Positions 1 to 5,978 of a stretch of DNA of 49,865 nucleotides are shown here, one piece after another (the stretch's first letter is position 1; each line of letters opens with the position of its first letter). The stretch is from positions 1 to 49,865 of the forward strand of contig JBIKVS010000008.1 in assembly GCA_044356725.1 (NCBI GenBank). The letters run 5' to 3'. Under the pieces are notes generated by a model, which saw nothing but the letters and a program-made list of their open reading frames with translations, made no database searches and was not told where the DNA came from. The stretch is from Minisyncoccia bacterium. Its GTDB lineage: Bacteria > Patescibacteriota > Minisyncoccia > SW-4-49-11. The translations under genes and the position numbers were made by a program.

Positions 1-33
1 TTTTACCCTTTCTTCTATATCTATATGTTTCAT
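1..33 (-). CDS. Possible N-terminus of a gene running off the window edge (MKHIDIEERVK...)
   Basis: ATG at 33-31, open to position 1; AT-rich upstream region with a TATAAT-like box. Confidence 0.3.
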   Translation of the reverse strand, partial: MKHIDIEERVK

Positions 34-130
34 ATATTCTATTTCTTAGCTTATTCTTGCCACTACTTATTTATTATATACCCTAGTGGTGCTTTTGATT
101 ATAGAATATGCGATTCCTTAAGAAAAAATT

Positions 131-168
131 ATAAAAACGACTCCCCCTGAGACTAAGTCATCAGGGGG
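131..168 (-). terminator. Intrinsic terminator downstream of the 377-aa ORF
   Basis: CCCCCTGA...TCAGGGGG stem (143-168) followed by a T-tract on the minus strand. Confidence 0.7.
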
Positions 169-249
169 TTGAAAGGACATGGATCAAGTTGTAGTAAATA
201 TTCAGTTTTTCAGACTAACTCCCAGCCTCCAAGGGAGAGTTTTATGGTT

Positions 250-1383
250 TTAGAATCTAAACCCCAACCGGGCTGTGGCAGCTAGGCCATTGCCAGAGGT
301 ACCGACATTGTAGCCGACAACACCCTCGGCATAGGCATTCCTGCCGATACCGACCTGGAGACCACCACCCACTTGGACGTTATGGTAACCAGAGCCAATC
401 TCGCCCCGCACTTCCACGAATGGCTTCAGTTGACCATTTTTGGTCAGGTAATACCGGCCGTAGCCATTTGCATAGGCTCCGGTGTTGTTCACACCGACCT
501 CGGCATAGGCCTCGACTTGAGCCGTACGATACCAGACACCAGCTTGAACATCGTATGCCCAGCCGGACTGTCCGGAGACAGTGGTGGCAGCCTCACCCTT
601 GAGATGAACGGTGAGCTGTTGGCTCTCCGTCCGGATGAGGTCCCGCTCAATGCGAGCACGCAAACCCACTTGGGTGAGGGGCTTGGGAGCATTCTTCCAG
701 GTATAGGAGTAAGGATACTCTGTACCAGGAAGACTCTTACCAGAGCCAGAGTCTTTGTGAGTCAGCTGGCGCACGAAGGCGTTCACTGACCACCGGGTGC
801 GAGCATCTTTGGTGGCTCCATGGCGCCCCACCCAGAATTCTGAGCGGGTGTCAGTGTAATCCCCTTTAAACACATCAGTAGCATTACGACCACTGAACGT
901 GCCCGAAGAGTCCACATGCTGGACTCCGAACATCCAGCCACCCTTGGTGACCAGCTCGGCCTTCACATCGAAGGTCGTATCCCGCGGACGGGAACGGACT
1001 TCCGTGTGAATCCTAATTGGCTTCCATAGCTCCACAGCTTGTTGCTGAGGGAGAGCTCCCTCAGGACGAATCAAGTCCGTCCTGGGAGTTGTGACCAGCT
1101 TCTCCTGAGGATCAGCTGGATCAGGAATTGCCGACATTACGGGCGGCGGACCGGGCTCCGAATCAGCCTGTCCACTAATGCGAGCACGCATAGCTCGCAA
1201 TTCAGCCAACTGCTCTTGAGGAGAAGCTGGCTTGGCCTCAAGAGCAATGGGAGTATTATTGACGACCGCGGAGGTCGCCGATTGAGGGGCTGAAAGCTTC
1301 AACTCCTCCGCCTTGACGCCCATAGGGGCACCAATCAACGGAAAAACCAATGCAAACAGTCCCAAGATGGTACGCTTTTTCAT
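250..1383 (-). CDS. Secreted high-GC protein, predicted outer-membrane beta-barrel-like
   Basis: Signal peptide (MKKRTILGLFALVFPLIGAPMGVKA), Pro-rich linker, many alternating amphipathic strands, C-terminus ...ARLGFRF, AGGAGGT SD upstream. Confidence 0.7.
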   Translation of the reverse strand: MKKRTILGLFALVFPLIGAPMGVKAEELKLSAPQSATSAVVNNTPIALEAKPASPQEQLAELRAMRARISGQADSEPGPPPVMSAIPDPADPQEKLVTTPRTDLIRPEGALPQQQAVELWKPIRIHTEVRSRPRDTTFDVKAELVTKGGWMFGVQHVDSSGTFSGRNATDVFKGDYTDTRSEFWVGRHGATKDARTRWSVNAFVRQLTHKDSGSGKSLPGTEYPYSYTWKNAPKPLTQVGLRARIERDLIRTESQQLTVHLKGEAATTVSGQSGWAYDVQAGVWYRTAQVEAYAEVGVNNTGAYANGYGRYYLTKNGQLKPFVEVRGEIGSGYHNVQVGGGLQVGIGRNAYAEGVVGYNVGTSGNGLAATARLGFRF

Positions 1384-1410
1384 AGCGACCTCCTGAGAAA
1401 GAACTCTCGC

Positions 1411-1439
1411 ATACTAGCATAAAAAGACCATTTTGTCAA
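1411..1439 (-). promoter_or_regulatory. sigma70 promoter for the 377-aa ORF
   Basis: TTGACA-17 nt-TAGTAT with extended TG. Confidence 0.75.
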
Positions 1440-1474
1440 TATATAACAACATCTATACAAAAAGTAAAAGAATA

Positions 1475-1500
1475 AAAAACCCCCACACGAATGCAGGGGT
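1475..1500 (-). terminator. Intrinsic terminator of the 87-aa ORF
   Basis: Minus strand ACCCCTGCA-TTCG-TGTGGGGGT followed by a T-run; G-U pairs make it minus-strand specific. Confidence 0.7.
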
Positions 1501-1534
1501 GGTTGATGGGTGAAGCTTCAGTTGAGGACTAACC

Positions 1535-1798
1535 TCAGCGAAGCTCCACCTGATGGATATAGCCGTACTTCCCGTTGGGAAAGTCGGAAGGGTGCCCCCC
1601 TCCTTTGTAGACGCAGGTCCCGCCATAGCGGGCCTGTGCCTCCTGGCAGGTGTTCACCCCAGAGGGGACGGACAGGGGTTCGCGCCCCGCGACCTCGATG
1701 AGGTCGGGGAGGGCTCCCGCCTGAGACATGGCGGGAGCCATAGCGAAGATTCCGGAAGCCAGCAGGATGCTGGAGAAGATGTTGGTAATGGGTACCAT
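1535..1798 (-). CDS. Small secreted high-GC protein with two Cys
   Basis: Signal peptide ...GIFAMAPAMSQA, GGAG SD, own promoter and terminator. Confidence 0.7.
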   Translation of the reverse strand: MVPITNIFSSILLASGIFAMAPAMSQAGALPDLIEVAGREPLSVPSGVNTCQEAQARYGGTCVYKGGGHPSDFPNGKYGYIHQVELR

Positions 1799-1834
1799 GG
1801 ATGGATTACTCCATTAGGTAGGGTTTACGACGCT

Positions 1835-1863
1835 ACTATAGCATATTTTATCAATTTTGTCAA
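1835..1863 (-). promoter_or_regulatory. sigma70 promoter for the 87-aa ORF
   Basis: TTGACA-17 nt-TATAGT with extended TG. Confidence 0.75.
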
Positions 1864-1874
1864 GAGATTAGAGC

Positions 1875-1906
1875 AAAAAAAATACCGGTAGCTATTTACT
1901 ACCGGC
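1875..1906 (-). terminator. Intrinsic terminator of the 135-aa ORF
   Basis: CCGGTAG/CTACCGG stem (1885-1905) followed by T8 on the minus strand. Confidence 0.75.
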
Positions 1907-1929
1907 TTAAGATAAAATTGATTAAAATA

Positions 1930-2337
1930 TTAATTGCAGAGAATACGGATATGCTTATCCTGGTAGACACATCCAGAATTATTCTGCCAAATCGGCCTAG
2001 GATGACGCCGTTGTTGATTATTATACTGCCAGCCTGGATTTGAATACCTGCTATAAGGAATCGAACGTACATAATGAGTTCTTGTACGACCATCCCATCG
2101 GTCATATTGACAAGAAAGACCTTGTGAATGAACCCATCCACAGGTATCTGTGTTGGGAGGAAGATTATTGGTTAATATTCTTCCATTATAAATGACGGTA
2201 TCTCCCCCAAACTGATTTTGTTGCCAGTGATGGTTATGAGTTGGAGGATAATACCCTCCTCCGTAATTTTGAGCCAAGGCAGAAGAAGGAGTAACCAGTG
2301 AAGCTACTGTCACCAAAGAACAGATTAGCCTTTGCAT
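1930..2337 (-). CDS. Small secreted Gly/Tyr/Asn/Gln-rich protein with Cys pairs
   Basis: Signal peptide MQRLICSLVTVASLVTPSSALA-Q, own promoter and terminator, GC intermediate between its neighbours and the genome. Confidence 0.7.
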   Translation of the reverse strand: MQRLICSLVTVASLVTPSSALAQNYGGGYYPPTHNHHWQQNQFGGDTVIYNGRILTNNLPPNTDTCGWVHSQGLSCQYDRWDGRTRTHYVRSIPYSRYSNPGWQYNNQQRRHPRPIWQNNSGCVYQDKHIRILCN

Positions 2338-2366
2338 GAGAGGAAACCCTATTAGAGTGCTATTTC

Positions 2367-2395
2367 ACCATATCATATATTCACCTGAATATCAA
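2367..2395 (-). promoter_or_regulatory. sigma70 promoter for the 135-aa ORF
   Basis: TTGATA-17 nt-TATGGT with extended TG. Confidence 0.6.
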
Positions 2396-2398
2396 GCC

Positions 2399-2432
2399 AA
2401 AAGAAAAAGCCGCCAGCACTGGACTGGCGGCT
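2399..2432 (-). terminator. Intrinsic terminator of the 275-aa ORF
   Basis: AGCCGCCAG/CTGGCGGCT stem (2408-2432) followed by a T-tract on the minus strand. Confidence 0.8.
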
Positions 2433-2449
2433 AGTTTGTGAATGAGGGG

Positions 2450-3277
2450 TCACTGCGCCTGATAGGCGTAGGGTCCGACGGGAGCCGGGGCATTGCCATC
2501 AAGCTTGATGACGTTACCGCGAAGCCTGGCGGCCCCCACTGTGGACCAGGCTTGGAGCTGATTGCTTCCATTCGCCTTGTAGGCGAATTGGAAGATTTGA
2601 CCCGGCTGGACCGGGAGACACCAGCTATTGCTACTCACCTTGGTGAGGGGAACCACTTGTGCGGATCCGCTTCCTCCATCCACAACCCCGACGGGAGTGG
2701 TGGATGCAAGGAGACGCCCCACATTAACGAGTCCCTTGGGACCGCCAGTGGCAAGGCCAACCCCTGGACGAATGCCCCCAGCTCCCGAGAAGGAGACTGA
2801 GTTCAGCTCCGAGGGGAGCTGAAGGCAAGCCTGCCCCCCTTGCACCGCCACCGTGAAGGAGCTGTTGGCTCCATTGGTGGTGATCGGAGCAACAAGCGCG
2901 AAGGTACGCGCATTTTTGAAGGCCTCCGCACCATCGCAGGCGAGTGCATCACCCTGGCAGTTACCCGCGATGATGCGAGCAGCCCAGCCGGTAGGGATAC
3001 CGTTGAGCTGCTCAACCTTCAGCCAACTCCCGTCTGGACGACGGAAATTGCCAAAGATCGAGGCCGCCCCGATATCCCCGGGGATGGTAACCTTGCCACC
3101 CCGAACGGGATAGCTTTGCCCCCACCCCTGCCCGAAGAGGACAAAGGTGGTGCCATCGGGCACGCCCGATGGGGCTGGGAGAGTATACTCTCTCCCCTGT
3201 GCCATCACAGGAATGGCGATTGCGACGAGGGCCAGAGCGGCCCCAATCAGATTGAAAATGTTCATATGCCGAGGCAT
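2450..3277 (-). CDS. Secreted high-GC beta-rich protein (start may be ATG 3265)
   Basis: Signal peptide ...GAALALVAIAIPVMA-Q, Gly-rich beta strands, four Cys, own promoter and terminator. Confidence 0.75.
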   Translation of the reverse strand: MPRHMNIFNLIGAALALVAIAIPVMAQGREYTLPAPSGVPDGTTFVLFGQGWGQSYPVRGGKVTIPGDIGAASIFGNFRRPDGSWLKVEQLNGIPTGWAARIIAGNCQGDALACDGAEAFKNARTFALVAPITTNGANSSFTVAVQGGQACLQLPSELNSVSFSGAGGIRPGVGLATGGPKGLVNVGRLLASTTPVGVVDGGSGSAQVVPLTKVSSNSWCLPVQPGQIFQFAYKANGSNQLQAWSTVGAARLRGNVIKLDGNAPAPVGPYAYQAQ

Positions 3278-3290
3278 AAGGTTCTGTGTG

Positions 3291-3319
3291 ATAATAGCAT
3301 AAAATAGCTATTTTGTCAA
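3291..3319 (-). promoter_or_regulatory. sigma70 promoter for the 275-aa ORF
   Basis: TTGACA-17 nt-TATTAT with extended TG. Confidence 0.75.
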
Positions 3320-3343
3320 TAAGCAATAAATAGTTTATAATAT

Positions 3344-4615
3344 ATGCATATGAAACAATCTATTGCTATCTTAATTACTAATTTTGAAGGAGGTGGAGCT
3401 CAAAAAGTAGCTCTTACTCATGCCTATATGTTTCAAAATTTAGGTTATAATGTACATATAATAGCTATTGAGCATCAAGAGTCATATCATATTCCTGATG
3501 ATTTTTCAGTGCATTTTTTAAGTTCTATGCAAGGACAGGGTTCAAAATTAAAAAAATTACTACTATCCCCTACTTTACCCTTTAAGTTAGCTAATTATCT
3601 TAAAAAGAATAAAATTAATCTCTGTATTAGCCATCTTGAAAGAGCTGATTTTGTAAATATATTAGCTAAATTTATTAATAAACATAAAACTATTGCTGTT
3701 ATTCATTCTCATCTTACTTCCACTTATAAAACTGAAAAGATTTCATTTAGTCGTATGGCTTATAAAATTTTAGTGCAGATATTAGAGCCTTTCAACAATA
3801 AAATTATAGCTGTCTCTAATGGTATTGCCGATGATTTGATTCGACTAGGATTACCTAAAAACAAAATACAAGTCATTCTAAATCCATTTGATATCAATTA
3901 TATCAGACATCAAGCTCAGGTTCAATTAGAAAAATATGTAGAAATTTTTAATAATGACACTATTATTTCAATTGGAAGATTATCTAATCAGAAAGGATTA
4001 TGGCATAGTATACTTGCTTTTAATCAAATAAAAAAATCTAATCCTACTCTAAAATACATAATCCTAGGGGATGGTCCATTACGAGAATATCATCTAAAAT
4101 TAGCCAATGATTTAGGTTTATCTGTTTATAATATATGGGATCAGGAGCAAGTATTCTCACCAGAAAATGATGTGTTTTTCCTAGGATTTCAAGCTAATCC
4201 ATTTCAATTTATAGATAAATCTAAAATACTAATACTACCGTCTCATTTTGAGGGTTTGCCCAATGTACTTGTAGAGAGCTTGATTATAGGTACACCTGTT
4301 ATTGCTACTGATGTGGATGCAGGACCTCGTGAATTACTAGCCCCAAATACGGATATTAACTATAAGACTAAATCTTTAGAAAAAGCTGAGTACGGTATTA
4401 TTGTTCCCGTTGATACAAATCAATTTCTAAAATTAGATTATTCAAAATTATCTACATCGGAAGAATATATTAAAAAAGCTATTGATTTACTATTAAATAA
4501 TCAACATTTAAGAGATACTTATATAAATAAATCTAAGACTAGAGTTAATGATTTTGCAATAGAGCGAATTATTCCTCAGTGGAAGACACTTCTGGAGTCT
4601 GTTTTGAGTAAATAG
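3344..4615 (+). CDS. Glycosyltransferase family 4 (GT-B)
   Basis: GGGAQKV, IGRLSNQKG, GFQANPF and EGLPNVLVE motifs. Confidence 0.9.
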   Translation: MHMKQSIAILITNFEGGGAQKVALTHAYMFQNLGYNVHIIAIEHQESYHIPDDFSVHFLSSMQGQGSKLKKLLLSPTLPFKLANYLKKNKINLCISHLERADFVNILAKFINKHKTIAVIHSHLTSTYKTEKISFSRMAYKILVQILEPFNNKIIAVSNGIADDLIRLGLPKNKIQVILNPFDINYIRHQAQVQLEKYVEIFNNDTIISIGRLSNQKGLWHSILAFNQIKKSNPTLKYIILGDGPLREYHLKLANDLGLSVYNIWDQEQVFSPENDVFFLGFQANPFQFIDKSKILILPSHFEGLPNVLVESLIIGTPVIATDVDAGPRELLAPNTDINYKTKSLEKAEYGIIVPVDTNQFLKLDYSKLSTSEEYIKKAIDLLLNNQHLRDTYINKSKTRVNDFAIERIIPQWKTLLESVLSK

Positions 4616-5978
4616 TATAATATTTAAAAGCAACTCCCAATATAGCAAAGAATATCCACATCACTGCTGTTTGACGCAATAAATTATCCCAAATACTAGA
4701 CAGATATATAGATACAGTTATAAATGTTACAATTAATAAAAATGTGTCTTGCTTTGAGTAAATTCTTATAGCTAGGCTATATAAAATAGATATAATAAAT
4801 AAAATATAAGTTACTAACCCCAAAACTCCCATTTCAACAAATATTTTGATATAGTCATTATGTACTTCTAATGAACCTAGAGACACTCCTCTAACCTCCT
4901 CTACAATAGTCTCAATAGTTCCTGTCCCAAATCCAGTCAATGGCTGTGTAAGTGCCTTATTATACATATCTGACCACATAACTTGTCTCCAAATTATAGA
5001 ATCACTAGGGTCTCCGTTGAATAATCCAACAATCCTAGCAATAATTGGTATATCTTCTATTGGTGTTAATTCATACAAAATGGTTTGTTGTAGCCAAAAA
5101 TATGTTGATAATAATATAGTTATAATGGGTATCATTAAACTAGTATAGATAATAGTTTTTTTAGGGAATTTTATCAAGCCAACTCCTATCAATAATATAA
5201 ATAGTCCAATCCAGGCACCTCTTGTATAGGTAGCTATAAGCAATATAGTTAATAAAATACCATAGACTATAAAAATATATTTTATGGTATTATTAAGAAG
5301 ATTTTTTTCAAATAATAAATATACCAATAAAGATATTATAATCAATAGAAAATACCCTAAAACATTTGGATGGCCAAAAGTACCAGCAATACGATTTTCA
5401 AAGCCTGGATTAGTGTATAGACCTGATCCATTAAAAAGCTGTATATAACCTACTGTGGTAGGAATTATTGATGAGGCAATGACAATTTTAATAAAATTAA
5501 TACAATCTAATCGAGACTGTATTATAATATAACCTGTGAAATACATAATTAAAAATGATAATACCCTTACAAGTTCGTTAATAGATATTATTGGATAATT
5601 TGATAGCCCAGAAAATAATATATATACACAAAATAATAATATAAATATAAAACTCAATGGGATTGAAAATATATATTGCTTGGATTTATATATAATAATT
5701 AAGCTAACTATAATAGATAAAGTAGCGACTAAACCAGCAATGTTAATAGATGTAAACTCCGGAAATAAAGTAAGACTATATTGACCAAAAATATCTAAAG
5801 AAGGTCTAATTAGTAATAAGAAGTAGAATAAAATATTTATAGATAATCTAAATAAAGTTAGTATCAATATAAAAGTAGCAATGAAAATAAATGTTGCTAT
5901 ATTACTATTCAAAAATAATGCCAATATTCCTATTACTCCCCCCAACACCAAAATAATCTTAGAATTTATTTGAGTCAT
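4569..5978 (-). CDS. O-antigen ligase/polymerase (Wzy_C/WaaL-like) membrane protein
   Basis: Many TM helices; RIAGTFGHPN, TYTRGAW, GFGTG and HNDY motifs. Confidence 0.9.
   Translation of the reverse strand: MTQINSKIILVLGGVIGILALFLNSNIATFIFIATFILILTLFRLSINILFYFLLLIRPSLDIFGQYSLTLFPEFTSINIAGLVATLSIIVSLIIIYKSKQYIFSIPLSFIFILLFCVYILFSGLSNYPIISINELVRVLSFLIMYFTGYIIIQSRLDCINFIKIVIASSIIPTTVGYIQLFNGSGLYTNPGFENRIAGTFGHPNVLGYFLLIIISLLVYLLFEKNLLNNTIKYIFIVYGILLTILLIATYTRGAWIGLFILLIGVGLIKFPKKTIIYTSLMIPIITILLSTYFWLQQTILYELTPIEDIPIIARIVGLFNGDPSDSIIWRQVMWSDMYNKALTQPLTGFGTGTIETIVEEVRGVSLGSLEVHNDYIKIFVEMGVLGLVTYILFIISILYSLAIRIYSKQDTFLLIVTFITVSIYLSSIWDNLLRQTAVMWIFFAILGVAFKYYTIYSKQTPEVSSTEE

Follow-up and report, generated by a model that had tools for sequence, protein, structure and literature searches.

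A genus-specific island of putative secreted-protein genes in an AT-rich Parcubacterium: GC-rich, possibly foreign ORF bodies between conserved native signals

One end of the window examined here (49,865 nt of contig JBIKVS010000008.1, the whole stretch of DNA analysed) is a mosaic, directly visible in the sequence, of GC-rich open reading frames (ORFs) separated by AT-rich promoters and terminators. The source organism is a tiny, AT-rich lake Parcubacterium (CPR). We propose that positions 1-3343 constitute a genus-specific hypervariable island of four monocistronic genes for secreted proteins, lying between cell-envelope glycan genes. Each gene would sit in a conserved native slot, in which a strong sigma-70 consensus promoter of a type found throughout the genome and a short leader precede the ORF and an intrinsic terminator follows it, and ORF bodies with the composition of a GC-rich organism would recombine among species and strains. 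Since the breakpoints split the transcription units, at the signal-peptide region and close to the stop codon, GC would track the ORF bodies gene by gene, leaving the scaffold AT-rich. A foreign origin is the most likely cause of the GC-richness of the island. That its ORF bodies are foreign, lodged in native expression slots and only partly ameliorated is a reading to which we give about even chances.

The features are listed in Table 1. The sigma-70-like sites of the 377-, 87- and 275-aa genes match 10-11 of the 12 consensus positions. Scanning the window returned 24 promoter-like sites (10.0 +/- 3.4 in shuffles) and 9 terminator-like hairpins (4.4 +/- 2.7 in shuffles); the hairpin of the 377-aa gene is missing from the latter because its loop of 10 exceeds the limit of the scan. 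The promoter of the 377-aa gene, of a type found genome-wide, is kept in congeneric loci L001, L002, L010, L011, L012 and L013, and the same loci have the same GT4/Wzy neighbours, a flank that marks the syntenic slot. Like its orthologues, the 275-aa gene may really start 12 nt further in, with the ATG of position 3265. Positions 1-112 recur at other contig ends, and the copy on contig C14 codes for a 323-aa protein matching HTH_38 (1e-15) and rve (2e-05, under the Pfam cut-off); this insertion element probably belongs to the IS30 family.

Table 1. Features at the start of the window (positions 1-5978).
Feature	Position	Strand	Remarks
End of multi-copy insertion element	1..112	-	breaks contig just downstream of island; first transposase codons on -
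Terminator-like hairpin, 377-aa gene	143..168	-	followed by T-rich run at ~121-140; found by eye; equivalent in L001
377-aa gene, predicted secreted beta-barrel	250..1383	-	GC 0.56, GC3 0.57
Leader with AGGAGG (1384-1410) and native consensus promoter (1411-1439), 377-aa gene	1384..1439	-	TTGACA-17-TAGTAT, TG-extended
Intrinsic terminator, 87-aa gene	1479..1500	-	homologous hairpins after slot 3 in all loci, whatever the ORF
Slot 3: 87-aa gene, predicted secreted protein	1535..1798	-	GC3 0.77; most variable slot
Leader (1799-1834) and native consensus promoter (1835-1863), 87-aa gene	1799..1863	-	
Intrinsic terminator, 135-aa gene	1884..1906	-	kept in 7/7 loci
135-aa gene, predicted secreted Cys-containing protein	1930..2337	-	compositional exception of the block, GC 0.42, GC3 0.31
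Promoter-like site, 135-aa gene	2367..2395	-	TTGATA-17-TATGGT; kept in spacer alignment
Intrinsic terminator, 275-aa gene	2408..2432	-	
275-aa gene, predicted secreted protein with two putative beta-sandwich domains	2450..3277	-	GC 0.61, GC3 0.65
Native consensus promoter, 275-aa gene	3291..3319	-	divergent to promoter-like site of GT4 gene (3313-3341, +)
AT-rich native flank: GT4 glycosyltransferase (+), Wzy-like O-antigen ligase/polymerase (-)	3344..5978		Pfam matches

GC stands at 0.51-0.53 over the first 3 kb of the window and at 0.26-0.36 in all remaining 1-kb bins. The 377-, 87- and 275-aa ORFs have GC of 0.56-0.61 and GC3 of 0.57-0.65 (higher still in the 87-aa ORF), against a genome mean GC3 of 0.235 (sd 0.073, 777 ORFs of at least 100 aa); the 135-aa gene is the exception. 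Four-fold-site GC is 0.5-0.66 in island genes versus 0.13-0.3 in the flanks. Synonymous-site composition thus departs from that of the resident genome beyond what amino-acid content dictates, and GC3 and four-fold sites together rule out amino-acid composition as the sole cause. Codons ending in A are nearly missing from the GC-rich ORFs (ATA 0.00-0.02, TTA 0.00-0.01), while those ending in T are still used; the 39 tRNAs of the genome, which include CNN and GNN species, can decode the island codons. By comparison with ORFs on picocyanobacterial contigs, island genes are similar at the first two codon positions (GC1 0.62-0.64 and GC2 0.49-0.54 versus means of 0.67 and 0.46) and lower at the third (GC3 0.57-0.65 versus 0.81), a comparison made partly circular by the coding-pattern filter used. 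Predicted leaders here are also richer in GC than native ones (0.41, n=6, versus 0.22, n=46; Mann-Whitney p=0.005), and strand skew is not consistent across the island. The remark in the first-pass annotation that the 377- and 87-aa genes carry Shine-Dalgarno (SD) motifs lacking from most housekeeping genes proved sound: an SD-like 4-mer precedes 13 of 23 island genes (6 loci; 2 of 4 in the window) versus 27 of 613 native ORFs. An assembly chimera was ruled out by contigs from three other runs that bridge the island junctions (one of them, 3295 nt long, covers 83-3377 and shows 0 differences) and by the same island in the assemblies of congeners. Further GC-rich patches of the genome, considered as candidate cassettes, turned out to be 16S, 23S and 5S rRNA and tRNA genes and a dispersed repeat family.

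The first-pass annotation had recognized the mosaic but located the shift at the predicted transcript ends, and had taken the mRNA as the anomalous unit. We fitted a step model to 17 island genes, using predicted promoters and terminators as transcript ends. The claim that GC rises right after the -10 box was not confirmed: for 13 of the 17 genes the 5' change point was placed within the ORF (at +51, +25 and +33 in the window genes), and the base after the -10 box falls within the 2-lnL interval for 8 genes and outside it for 9, the 275-aa gene among the latter. The drop said to occur at the hairpin does so in 11 of 11 non-barrel genes, between +38 and +55, where the hairpin stem ends, a coincidence that any terminator with a GC stem and a T-tract would be expected to produce. 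It does not in the 377-aa gene, where GC falls at -12 (support -20 to -6), that is, at the stop codon and about 80 nt before the hairpin; early drops like this one were found in 3 of 6 barrel genes. With 5' change points off the predicted transcription starts, a barrel-gene 3' UTR that is not GC-rich and exchange breakpoints inside transcripts, the idea of the mRNA as the anomalous unit is not supported.

Seven genomes of one genus have the island in the same slot, flanked on one side by GT4/Wzy and on the other by a second GT4 gene. In all 7 its GC-rich ORFs have a GC of 0.53-0.64 and the flanks 0.28-0.36, and AT-rich spacer DNA devoid of promoters is found within tens of bases of the GC-rich ORFs. 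Within its class, the island family is confined to 8 of 401 genomes and to a single genus out of 283. Conservation of the scaffold could be measured directly: those of distant species have spacers with 74-93% identity (32-53% in shuffled controls), still recognisable where the barrel proteins share only 32-34% identity. This may reflect functional constraint rather than co-transfer; we dropped it as proof of the latter, as one native spacer is equally conserved (91-99% identical). The exchange breakpoints are likewise apparent in the alignments. In other species slot 3 holds unrelated proteins of 103 to 133 aa, with common leaders and signal-peptide starts upstream and common 3' UTRs and terminators downstream; sharing of these parts among loci with unrelated mature proteins places the breakpoints inside the transcripts. 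Exchange extends to strains: in run X12, positions 3148-3281, in the region of the 275-aa gene, are replaced by 145 other letters. Strains differ at 33 of 3247 nt in the island versus 74 of 1131 nt in the flank.

Synonymous divergence directly reveals the decoupling of island alleles from their species. Between L001 and L002, island dS is 0.38-0.68 versus 1.23-2.98 for native genes, and four-fold-site identity 0.71-0.72 versus 0.29-0.45; in the sister pair L002-L011 the relation is inverted, with island dS of 0.44-0.89 versus native dS of 0.11-0.23. The history of these genes is therefore discordant with that of the species, and the higher island dS of the sister pair points to replaced alleles, not to constraint. 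The 135-aa gene, with a native-like dS of 0.13 in this pair, looks like the sole island gene to have been inherited vertically there, and it is the one whose GC3 is about 0.3.

A second GC-rich cassette of the same genome allows the full mechanism to be followed directly. The gene at 4714-5367 of contig C10 encodes an aldehyde decarbonylase (Ald_deCOase, 3e-57; PF11266 matched over positions 1-218 of 218, above the curated cut-off, E = 8.3e-114); it carries one in-frame TAG in this genome, and 7 congeners have an intact copy. Within the genus, 8 of 12 genomes possess the gene; all 9 genomes examined from other genera lack it. The protein shares 81-89% identity with named proteins of Synechococcus, Cyanobium, Vulcanococcus and Aphanothece, and GC3 is 0.47-0.66 in the CPR copies (flank GC 0.32-0.43) and 0.64-0.95 in the cyanobacterial ones. 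The CPR copies are polyphyletic, with 7 label changes on the tree, at least 5 of them forced by starred branches; their monophyly was recovered in 0 of 200 bootstrap trees and is rejected by the AU test (p=0.0013). On this phylogeny the genus acquired the gene several times. Across clades the CPR copies have native promoter, leader and first-codon modules in common: behind CPR-specific first codons, homology with cyanobacterial DNA sets in within the coding region and continues to about 10 nt past the stop codon, and the downstream neighbour gene of cyanobacteria was not taken along. Polarised with cyanobacterial outgroups, the changes on CPR branches number 416 from GC to AT and 63 from AT to GC, for an equilibrium GC of 0.18; the cassette is decaying towards AT. 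Here, then, foreign coding sequence does stand behind a native promoter, and the earlier proposal of foreign capture survives to the extent that foreign-type sequence comes gene by gene; the notion of the mRNA as the foreign unit finds no support.

By analogy with this cassette, we infer that the island genes share an origin of the same type, the donor being a picocyanobacterium or another GC-rich partner. Natural transformation and recombination would place foreign ORF bodies into existing slots, after which they would spread among congeners and ameliorate in part under strong genomic AT pressure; genes for ComEC, DprA and RecA are present in the genome. Searches for the donor of the island genes failed. 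The barrel-protein profile matched no more than 4 clusters out of 1.84 billion representatives, the JGI metagenome scan (alignment A1) gave 84 pattern matches of which not one was confirmed as an island locus, and viral contigs yielded 0 of 68 (A1) and 0 of 36 (alignment A2). This counts against a picocyanobacterial donor, as picocyanobacteria are well sampled and close homologues there should have surfaced. In addition, every island allele is GC-rich, even at 32-34% identity, and a one-off import followed by decay would thus have to give way to many imports or a hidden GC-rich reservoir. Polarisation within the CPR alone (outgroup triplets, singleton counts) gave 1.1-2.0 GC-to-AT changes per AT-to-GC change for island genes, but the method failed its decarbonylase control, returning 1.1-2.4:1 for a known decay of 6.6:1; for native genes it put the equilibrium GC near 0.5, which is implausible. 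It therefore cannot separate decay from equilibrium, and we dropped the near-balanced island fluxes as evidence for the latter.

None of the four island proteins has a Pfam, NCBIfam or PHROGs family match, and cluster look-ups return only "hypothetical protein"; the other GC-rich cassette proteins tested, the decarbonylase apart, have only weak, below-cut-off family matches, none of them explanatory. The 377-aa protein has a signal peptide, a disordered Pro-rich/coiled linker and a predicted C-terminal barrel of the outer-membrane type. Its AlphaFold model is disordered or coiled over the N-terminal 120 residues and forms a closed antiparallel barrel of about 15 strands over residues 121-377 (pLDDT 80-94), with an aromatic last residue, Phe. 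Foldseek matches the model to autotransporter beta-domains, FadL, OmpG and FapF (E about 1e-5, probability 1.00), and the Atlas feature similarity of 0.94 to an OmpG-like cluster serves as a lead only. The predicted strand number and terminal Phe are like those of OmpG, FadL and autotransporter translocator domains; unlike known outer-membrane barrels, the protein matches no sequence family and comes from a genome with no Omp85/BamA (PF01103; control search positive in 7 of 14 genomes). For the 275-aa protein the model is less certain (pLDDT 72, weak Ig/FN3-like matches, TM about 0.2), and an Atlas lookup gave nothing at 0.76. Word-indexed searches found 39 homologues of the 377-aa protein and 31 of the 275-aa protein, one of these titled Candidatus Parcubacteria.

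The alternative that deserves most attention is that these genes are lineage-specific inventions whose GC is actively maintained within the genus, whether because selection acts on the mRNA or coding sequence (for stability, or so that secreted proteins are decoded slowly) or through GC-biased gene conversion at a recombination hot spot. We consider this unlikely, though worth taking seriously. An orphan family confined to one genus, GC-rich in every allele however divergent, with GC-richer leaders, near-loss of A-ending codons alone, evident mosaic recombination and a synonymous divergence below that of native flanks in distant species would fit such maintenance. However, the sole GC-rich cassette that can be polarised, that of the decarbonylase, decays strongly towards AT in the same genomes; the 135-aa neighbour, secreted and with its own promoter, has nonetheless a low GC3; native genes with high expression are not shifted; the sister pair has a higher dS in island than in native genes; and conversion tracts are not expected to spare AT-rich, non-promoter spacers tens of bases from the ORFs.

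Three further explanations had been offered with the idea of the mRNA as the unit. Reverse transcription of foreign transcripts and their insertion behind native promoters would account for a GC-rich stretch that takes in the short leaders and, in two of the three GC-rich genes of the window, the 17-34 nt from stop to hairpin, for SD motifs that go with the ORFs, and for a decarbonylase gene parted from its downstream neighbour. Such RNA capture is nevertheless very improbable: no RVT_1 (PF00078) match was found in this 99.26%-complete genome (control search positive in 3 of 14 genomes), most 5' change points are inside ORFs, the barrel-gene 3' UTR is AT-rich, leaders and 3' UTRs do not travel with the mature-protein regions, and the stretch of decarbonylase homology begins behind the CPR-specific first codons and stops shortly after the stop codon. 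Equally hard to credit is the suggestion that the transcripts or genes are meant for translation in a GC-rich host, with host codon usage and SD-dependent initiation under selection. Non-native codon usage, SD motifs where native genes go without, an outer-membrane-type barrel in a genome without Omp85/BamA and decarbonylase transfers suggestive of a cyanobacterial partner would all suit it, but nothing in the data points to export of RNA or DNA or requires exported mRNA: the signal peptides are ordinary, the epibiont itself could secrete the products, its tRNAs can decode the codons, the 135-aa neighbour is not GC-rich, and the decarbonylase cassette, of the same architecture, needs no host expression and decays. 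A transcription-linked mutational bias lifting GC in these units is the least credible of all. Each GC-rich ORF does have its own strong consensus promoter; yet many native genes and tRNAs stand behind promoters of the same type and the native genes remain AT-rich, and, as had already been pointed out, tuf (GC3 0.19) and the r-protein genes (0.14-0.25) are not shifted. Nor is strand skew consistent, and on the decarbonylase cassette the bias runs towards AT.

Returning to foreign ORF bodies in native slots, the closest parallel lies in the compositionally atypical, horizontally acquired genes undergoing amelioration that Lawrence and Ochman are said to have described in 1997. The island resembles them in its foreign-type composition, with GC3 between donor and recipient and donor-like GC1 and GC2, and the decarbonylase cassette does so in its measured AT-ward flux. 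It differs in that separate foreign-like ORF bodies alternate with native, conserved and functional spacers instead of forming a contiguous block; moreover, the decarbonylase gene was imported repeatedly, and for the island genes no donor was found. The vls locus of Borrelia is a GC-rich antigenic-variation locus in an AT-rich genome, a hypervariable surface-protein locus with conserved flanks. Secreted or surface proteins, a GC that stays high from species to species although protein identity is low, and segmental recombination inside genes are common to both, but here each gene has its own promoter and variation is seen between strains and species. Self-BLAST of 20 contigs found no other copy of window positions 113-3343 that could serve as a silent donor cassette, in an assembly that may miss repeats. 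Integron arrays, too, string together short ORFs that can be exchanged one by one, with a hairpin-forming element after each; in the island, however, every ORF has a promoter, the hairpins are terminators with a GC stem and T-tract, breakpoints lie inside ORFs, and no integrase gene was found among the neighbours at any of the 7 loci. Natural competence has been described as a route by which Patescibacteria gain genes, as islands and as single transfers (PMC12455944, PMC9166423), and those systems resemble this CPR with its ComEC, DprA and RecA and its genes acquired from other phyla. The accessible parts of these papers describe no repeated replacement of a single ORF in a fixed native slot, no decarbonylase gene and no link between Parcubacteria and picocyanobacteria; our literature search did not find the pattern described, and the supplements of both papers may list these MAGs.

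It is tempting to speculate that a Parcubacteria genus dwelling on picocyanobacteria uses the island as a toolkit for interaction with its host, comprising a barrel for the host outer membrane and beta-sandwich binders; the GC-rich ORF bodies of the island would continually be re-sourced or exchanged by competence-driven recombination into fixed slots. The argument is that a barrel which cannot be assembled in an envelope without BamA would be destined for that of the host. Although we think this rather doubtful, it would mean that the epibiont overwrites gene bodies so as to keep its host-compatible proteins current, and in its boldest version genes or mRNAs would even be expressed in the host. 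These Parcubacteria are uncultured and their hosts mostly unknown. Repeated import of a cyanobacteria-specific gene, if borne out, would be genomic evidence of a physical partner, the freshwater picocyanobacteria, and a barrel in a BamA-less genome would offer a concrete candidate for a protein acting on the host envelope. The direct tests count against RNA capture and transcription-coupled bias. For those who search genomes by composition, the finding would come with the caution that island finders detect ORF-sized pieces here, not blocks. More generally, slots in which native promoter, leader and first codons are followed by a foreign ORF core and then by native 3' UTR and terminator would show how a streamlined, SD-independent, AT-rich genome expresses GC-rich foreign genes and renews them by recombination.

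The island at the start of the window differs sharply in composition from the rest of the genome. The latter comprises 0.897 Mb in 20 contigs, of which the window is one in its entirety, with per-contig GC of 0.29-0.355; GC is 0.51-0.53 in the first 3 kb of the window, versus 0.26-0.36 in all later 1-kb bins. GC3 averages 0.235 ± 0.073 over the 777 ORFs of at least 100 aa in the genome and is far higher in three of the four island ORFs, so the shift affects synonymous sites and goes beyond amino acid content. GC1 and GC2 of the island ORFs resemble those of ORFs on picocyanobacterial contigs (0.67 and 0.46), and island GC3 lies about 0.2 below the 0.81 of the same ORFs, the filter used for these comparisons being partly circular. 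An assembly chimera was excluded as the source of the mosaic: its junctions are bridged by contigs from three other runs, and a 3295-nt contig of another run spans window positions 83-3377 with 0 differences.

Coordinates of the island ORFs and of other features discussed (W, window; C, contigs of the same genome; L001 and L014, the island locus of a congener and the decarbonylase locus on C10)
Feature	Position	Strand	Length	GC	GC3
Barrel gene	W:250-1383	-	377 aa	0.56	0.57
87-aa gene (slot 3)	W:1535-1798	-	87 aa		0.77
135-aa gene	W:1930-2337	-	135 aa	0.42	0.31
275-aa gene	W:2450-3277	-	275 aa	0.61	0.65
Insertion element copy	W:1-112
Insertion element transposase	C14:80-1051		323 aa
Dispersed repeat	W:11882-12139
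Dispersed repeat	W:25663-26100
Native spacer	L001:11585-11673		89 nt
Aldehyde decarbonylase	C10:4714-5367 (L014:906-1607)	-
Nuclease-domain gene	L014:84-851	+	255 aa
Solitary GC-rich ORF	C10:28901-29419
Solitary GC-rich ORF	C6:24214-24747
Solitary GC-rich ORF	C8:33972-34433
Solitary GC-rich ORF	C5:43450-44034
Solitary GC-rich ORF	C18:3248-3757
Solitary GC-rich ORF	C14:1857-2126

The first-pass annotation held that this GC shift follows transcript boundaries. A step model fitted to 240 nt around each start and stop of 17 GC-rich island genes from six loci places the best 5' change point inside the ORF in 13 of them (at +51, +25 and +33 in the window genes); the base following the -10 box lies within the 5' support interval in 8 genes and outside it in 9. 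At the 3' end, GC drops at +38 to +55 in all 11 genes that do not encode the barrel, at the end of the terminator stem, which would be expected of any terminator built from a GC stem and a T tract. In the 377-aa gene the fall in GC comes already at the stop codon (-12; support interval, -20 to -6), some 80 nt ahead of the hairpin at 143-168, and its 3' UTR is AT-rich. The junctions are thus not at predicted transcript ends; GC-rich sequence does run on for a few tens of bases past certain ORFs, but the compositional units do not correspond to transcripts. The remainder of the earlier observation stood, namely the mosaic itself, the GC-richer leaders (0.41 in predicted leaders of GC-rich genes, n = 6, versus 0.22 in native ones, n = 46; p = 0.005) and the SD-like motifs, which precede 13 of 23 island genes versus 27 of 613 native ORFs. 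The 16S rRNA retains the anti-SD CCUCC at its 3' end despite the near absence of SD motifs from native genes. Position -1 is a T in 79% of ORFs by naive start calls, possibly an artifact of start choice.

The AT-rich spacers between the island ORFs carry promoter-like sites, with 9-11 of the 12 consensus positions matched, as well as hairpins resembling terminators. The element TTGACAAA is found 113 times genome-wide, often upstream of tRNA and housekeeping genes and with a TG-extended -10 box after it; the island promoters are of this native, generally used type.

A second locus of the same genome illustrates how such a mosaic can arise. It encodes a full-length aldehyde decarbonylase of the cyanobacterial type (Pfam PF11266), with one in-frame TAG here and intact in seven congeners, in a cassette laid out like the island: AT-rich promoter-like region, GC-rich ORF, hairpin terminator. 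Eight of the 12 genomes of the genus carry the gene, versus none of nine searched genomes of other genera, and its product shares 81-89% identity with proteins assigned by name to Synechococcus, Cyanobium, Vulcanococcus and Aphanothece. Among 88 decarbonylase loci, GC3 is 0.47-0.66 in the 10 whose flanks are AT-rich (GC 0.32-0.43) and 0.64-0.95 in the 78 whose flanks are GC-rich (0.57-0.74). In a maximum-likelihood tree of 74 distinct sequences, the nine copies from Patescibacteria (CPR) require seven label changes, at least five of them forced by well-supported branches; none of 200 bootstrap trees groups these copies as one clade, and a single clade is rejected by the AU test (p = 0.0013). 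CPR copies placed in different cyanobacterial clades have a native promoter, leader and first codons in common. Homology to cyanobacterial DNA (about 80-85% at the nucleotide level) starts inside the coding region and stops about 10 nt past the stop codon, before the cyanobacterial downstream gene, which is absent from the CPR locus. With cyanobacterial outgroups, changes on the CPR branches amount to 416 GC-to-AT versus 63 AT-to-GC (equilibrium GC 0.18), and to 113 versus 3 at four-fold sites. Together these data show that GC-rich ORF cores of picocyanobacterial origin were repeatedly placed in, or overwrote, a native slot, where they are now decaying. The genome encodes ComEC, DprA and RecA, and competence of Patescibacteria has been described (PMC12455944). 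Adjoining the decarbonylase gene, and convergent with it, lies a gene whose product carries Staphylococcal nuclease (6e-24) and Excalibur (1.2e-09) domains and may serve to scavenge DNA as an extracellular nuclease.

The island occupies the same position, between GT4/Wzy and a second GT4 gene, in six other genomes of the genus, in which its ORFs have GC 0.53-0.64 within flanks of 0.28-0.36. In the window, a copy of a multi-copy insertion element, also found at starts or ends of C3, C14, C15 and other contigs and encoding a transposase with HTH_38 and rve domains, breaks the contig just downstream of the island, where congeners carry the second GT4 gene. The island spacers are 74-93% identical between distant species, versus 32-53% for shuffled sequences, and are still recognizable where identity of the barrel protein is only 32-34%. 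This conservation alone does not prove co-transfer, since one spacer between two native genes (equivalents at island loci L002, L010, L011 and L012) is 91-99% identical across species with saturated synonymous sites, which hints at a conserved RNA or regulatory element missing from the annotation. The ORFs follow a different pattern. Slot 3 is occupied by unrelated proteins of 102-133 aa in the other loci: a common leader and the first codons of the signal peptide stand before mature parts that are unrelated, and a common 3' UTR and terminator come after unrelated C-termini. The window is represented in 20 lake metagenome runs; a contig from one such assembly is near-identical to it except that the 5' end of the 275-aa gene (3148-3281) is swapped for 145 unrelated letters. 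Both cases place exchange breakpoints inside transcription units.

The island genes have diverged out of step with the genomes that carry them, indicating that island alleles move between species. In a distant pair (L001-L002), dS is 0.38-0.68 in the island versus 1.23-2.98 in native genes, and four-fold-site identity is 0.71-0.72 versus 0.29-0.45 (chance, about 0.3). In a sister pair (L002-L011), native dS is 0.11-0.23, with 0.89 for the barrel gene, 0.44 for the 275-aa gene and 0.13 for the 135-aa gene. Between strains, the island shows 33 differences in 3247 nt, versus 74 in 1131 nt of the GT4 flank. The apparent vertical inheritance of the 135-aa gene in the sister pair coincides with its near-native GC3, which, with four genes only, fits decay by residence time. 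With dN/dS of 0.12-0.34 for the barrel and 275-aa genes and 0.21-0.57 for the 135-aa gene, these three are real genes under constraint.

The best-supported explanation is that the island results from the same process as the decarbonylase cassette: ORF bodies of foreign composition would occupy native expression slots, be exchanged by recombination among congeners, and be only partly ameliorated. We give this import reading an even chance, since very large searches found no donor of the island genes and their substitutions cannot be polarized; CPR-only polarization yields near-balanced fluxes, as it does for the decarbonylase gene known to decay. Its main rival, which we regard as rather unlikely, holds that the genes are specific to the lineage and that an active process, either selection acting on the coding sequence or biased gene conversion at a hot spot of recombination, keeps up their GC. 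The 377-aa protein is restricted to the genus (7 of 61 relatives' genomes, 1 of 49 genera; a profile search matched 8 of 401 genomes, all in one of the 283 genera of the class), its 39 relatives are all unnamed proteins, and its profile retrieved four clusters from 1.84 billion representatives.

The explanations put forward in the first-pass annotation fare poorly. Against capture of reverse-transcribed foreign transcripts behind native promoters, the junctions are not at transcript ends, and a search of the genome found no reverse transcriptase. A transcription-linked bias is contradicted by the many native genes that remain AT-rich behind the same promoters and by tuf and the r-protein genes, which, as had been remarked, lack the shift (GC3 0.14-0.25). 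Export of mRNA to the host, invoked for the GC-rich, SD-bearing transcripts, is unnecessary to account for the data.

Other GC-rich patches occur in the genome. A dispersed repeat family (100-400 bp, GC 0.45-0.55, about 40-50 copies), unusual for a 0.9-Mb genome, yields spurious GC-rich ORFs; the copies tested reached the gathering score of no Rfam family. Six solitary ORFs with GC of 0.45-0.61 matched no family that explains them. Promoters of the TTGACAAA type precede five of the six; the one on C8 has a signal peptide and a C-terminal Phe, like the barrel protein, and that on C10 an internal duplication.

Precedents exist for atypical composition with amelioration, for hypervariable surface-protein loci and for transfer into CPR genomes. 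In the passages of the literature searched, we found no description of the slot-wise architecture, of a single cyanobacterial gene repeatedly entering a Parcubacteria genus, or of an outer-membrane-type barrel in such a genome. All four island proteins carry signal-peptide-like N-terminal segments, as read from sequence, and none has a named match in family libraries. The 275-aa protein is modeled as two beta-sandwich domains with weak structural matches. Residues 121-377 of the 377-aa protein, which ends in Phe, form a predicted barrel of about 15 strands (pLDDT 80-94) resembling autotransporter translocators, FadL, OmpG and FapF (Foldseek E about 1e-5, target-normalized TM 0.4-0.58); no match to Omp85/BamA was found in the genome. 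A predicted barrel without BamA, together with the SD motifs, may leave room for a host-directed role of these proteins.
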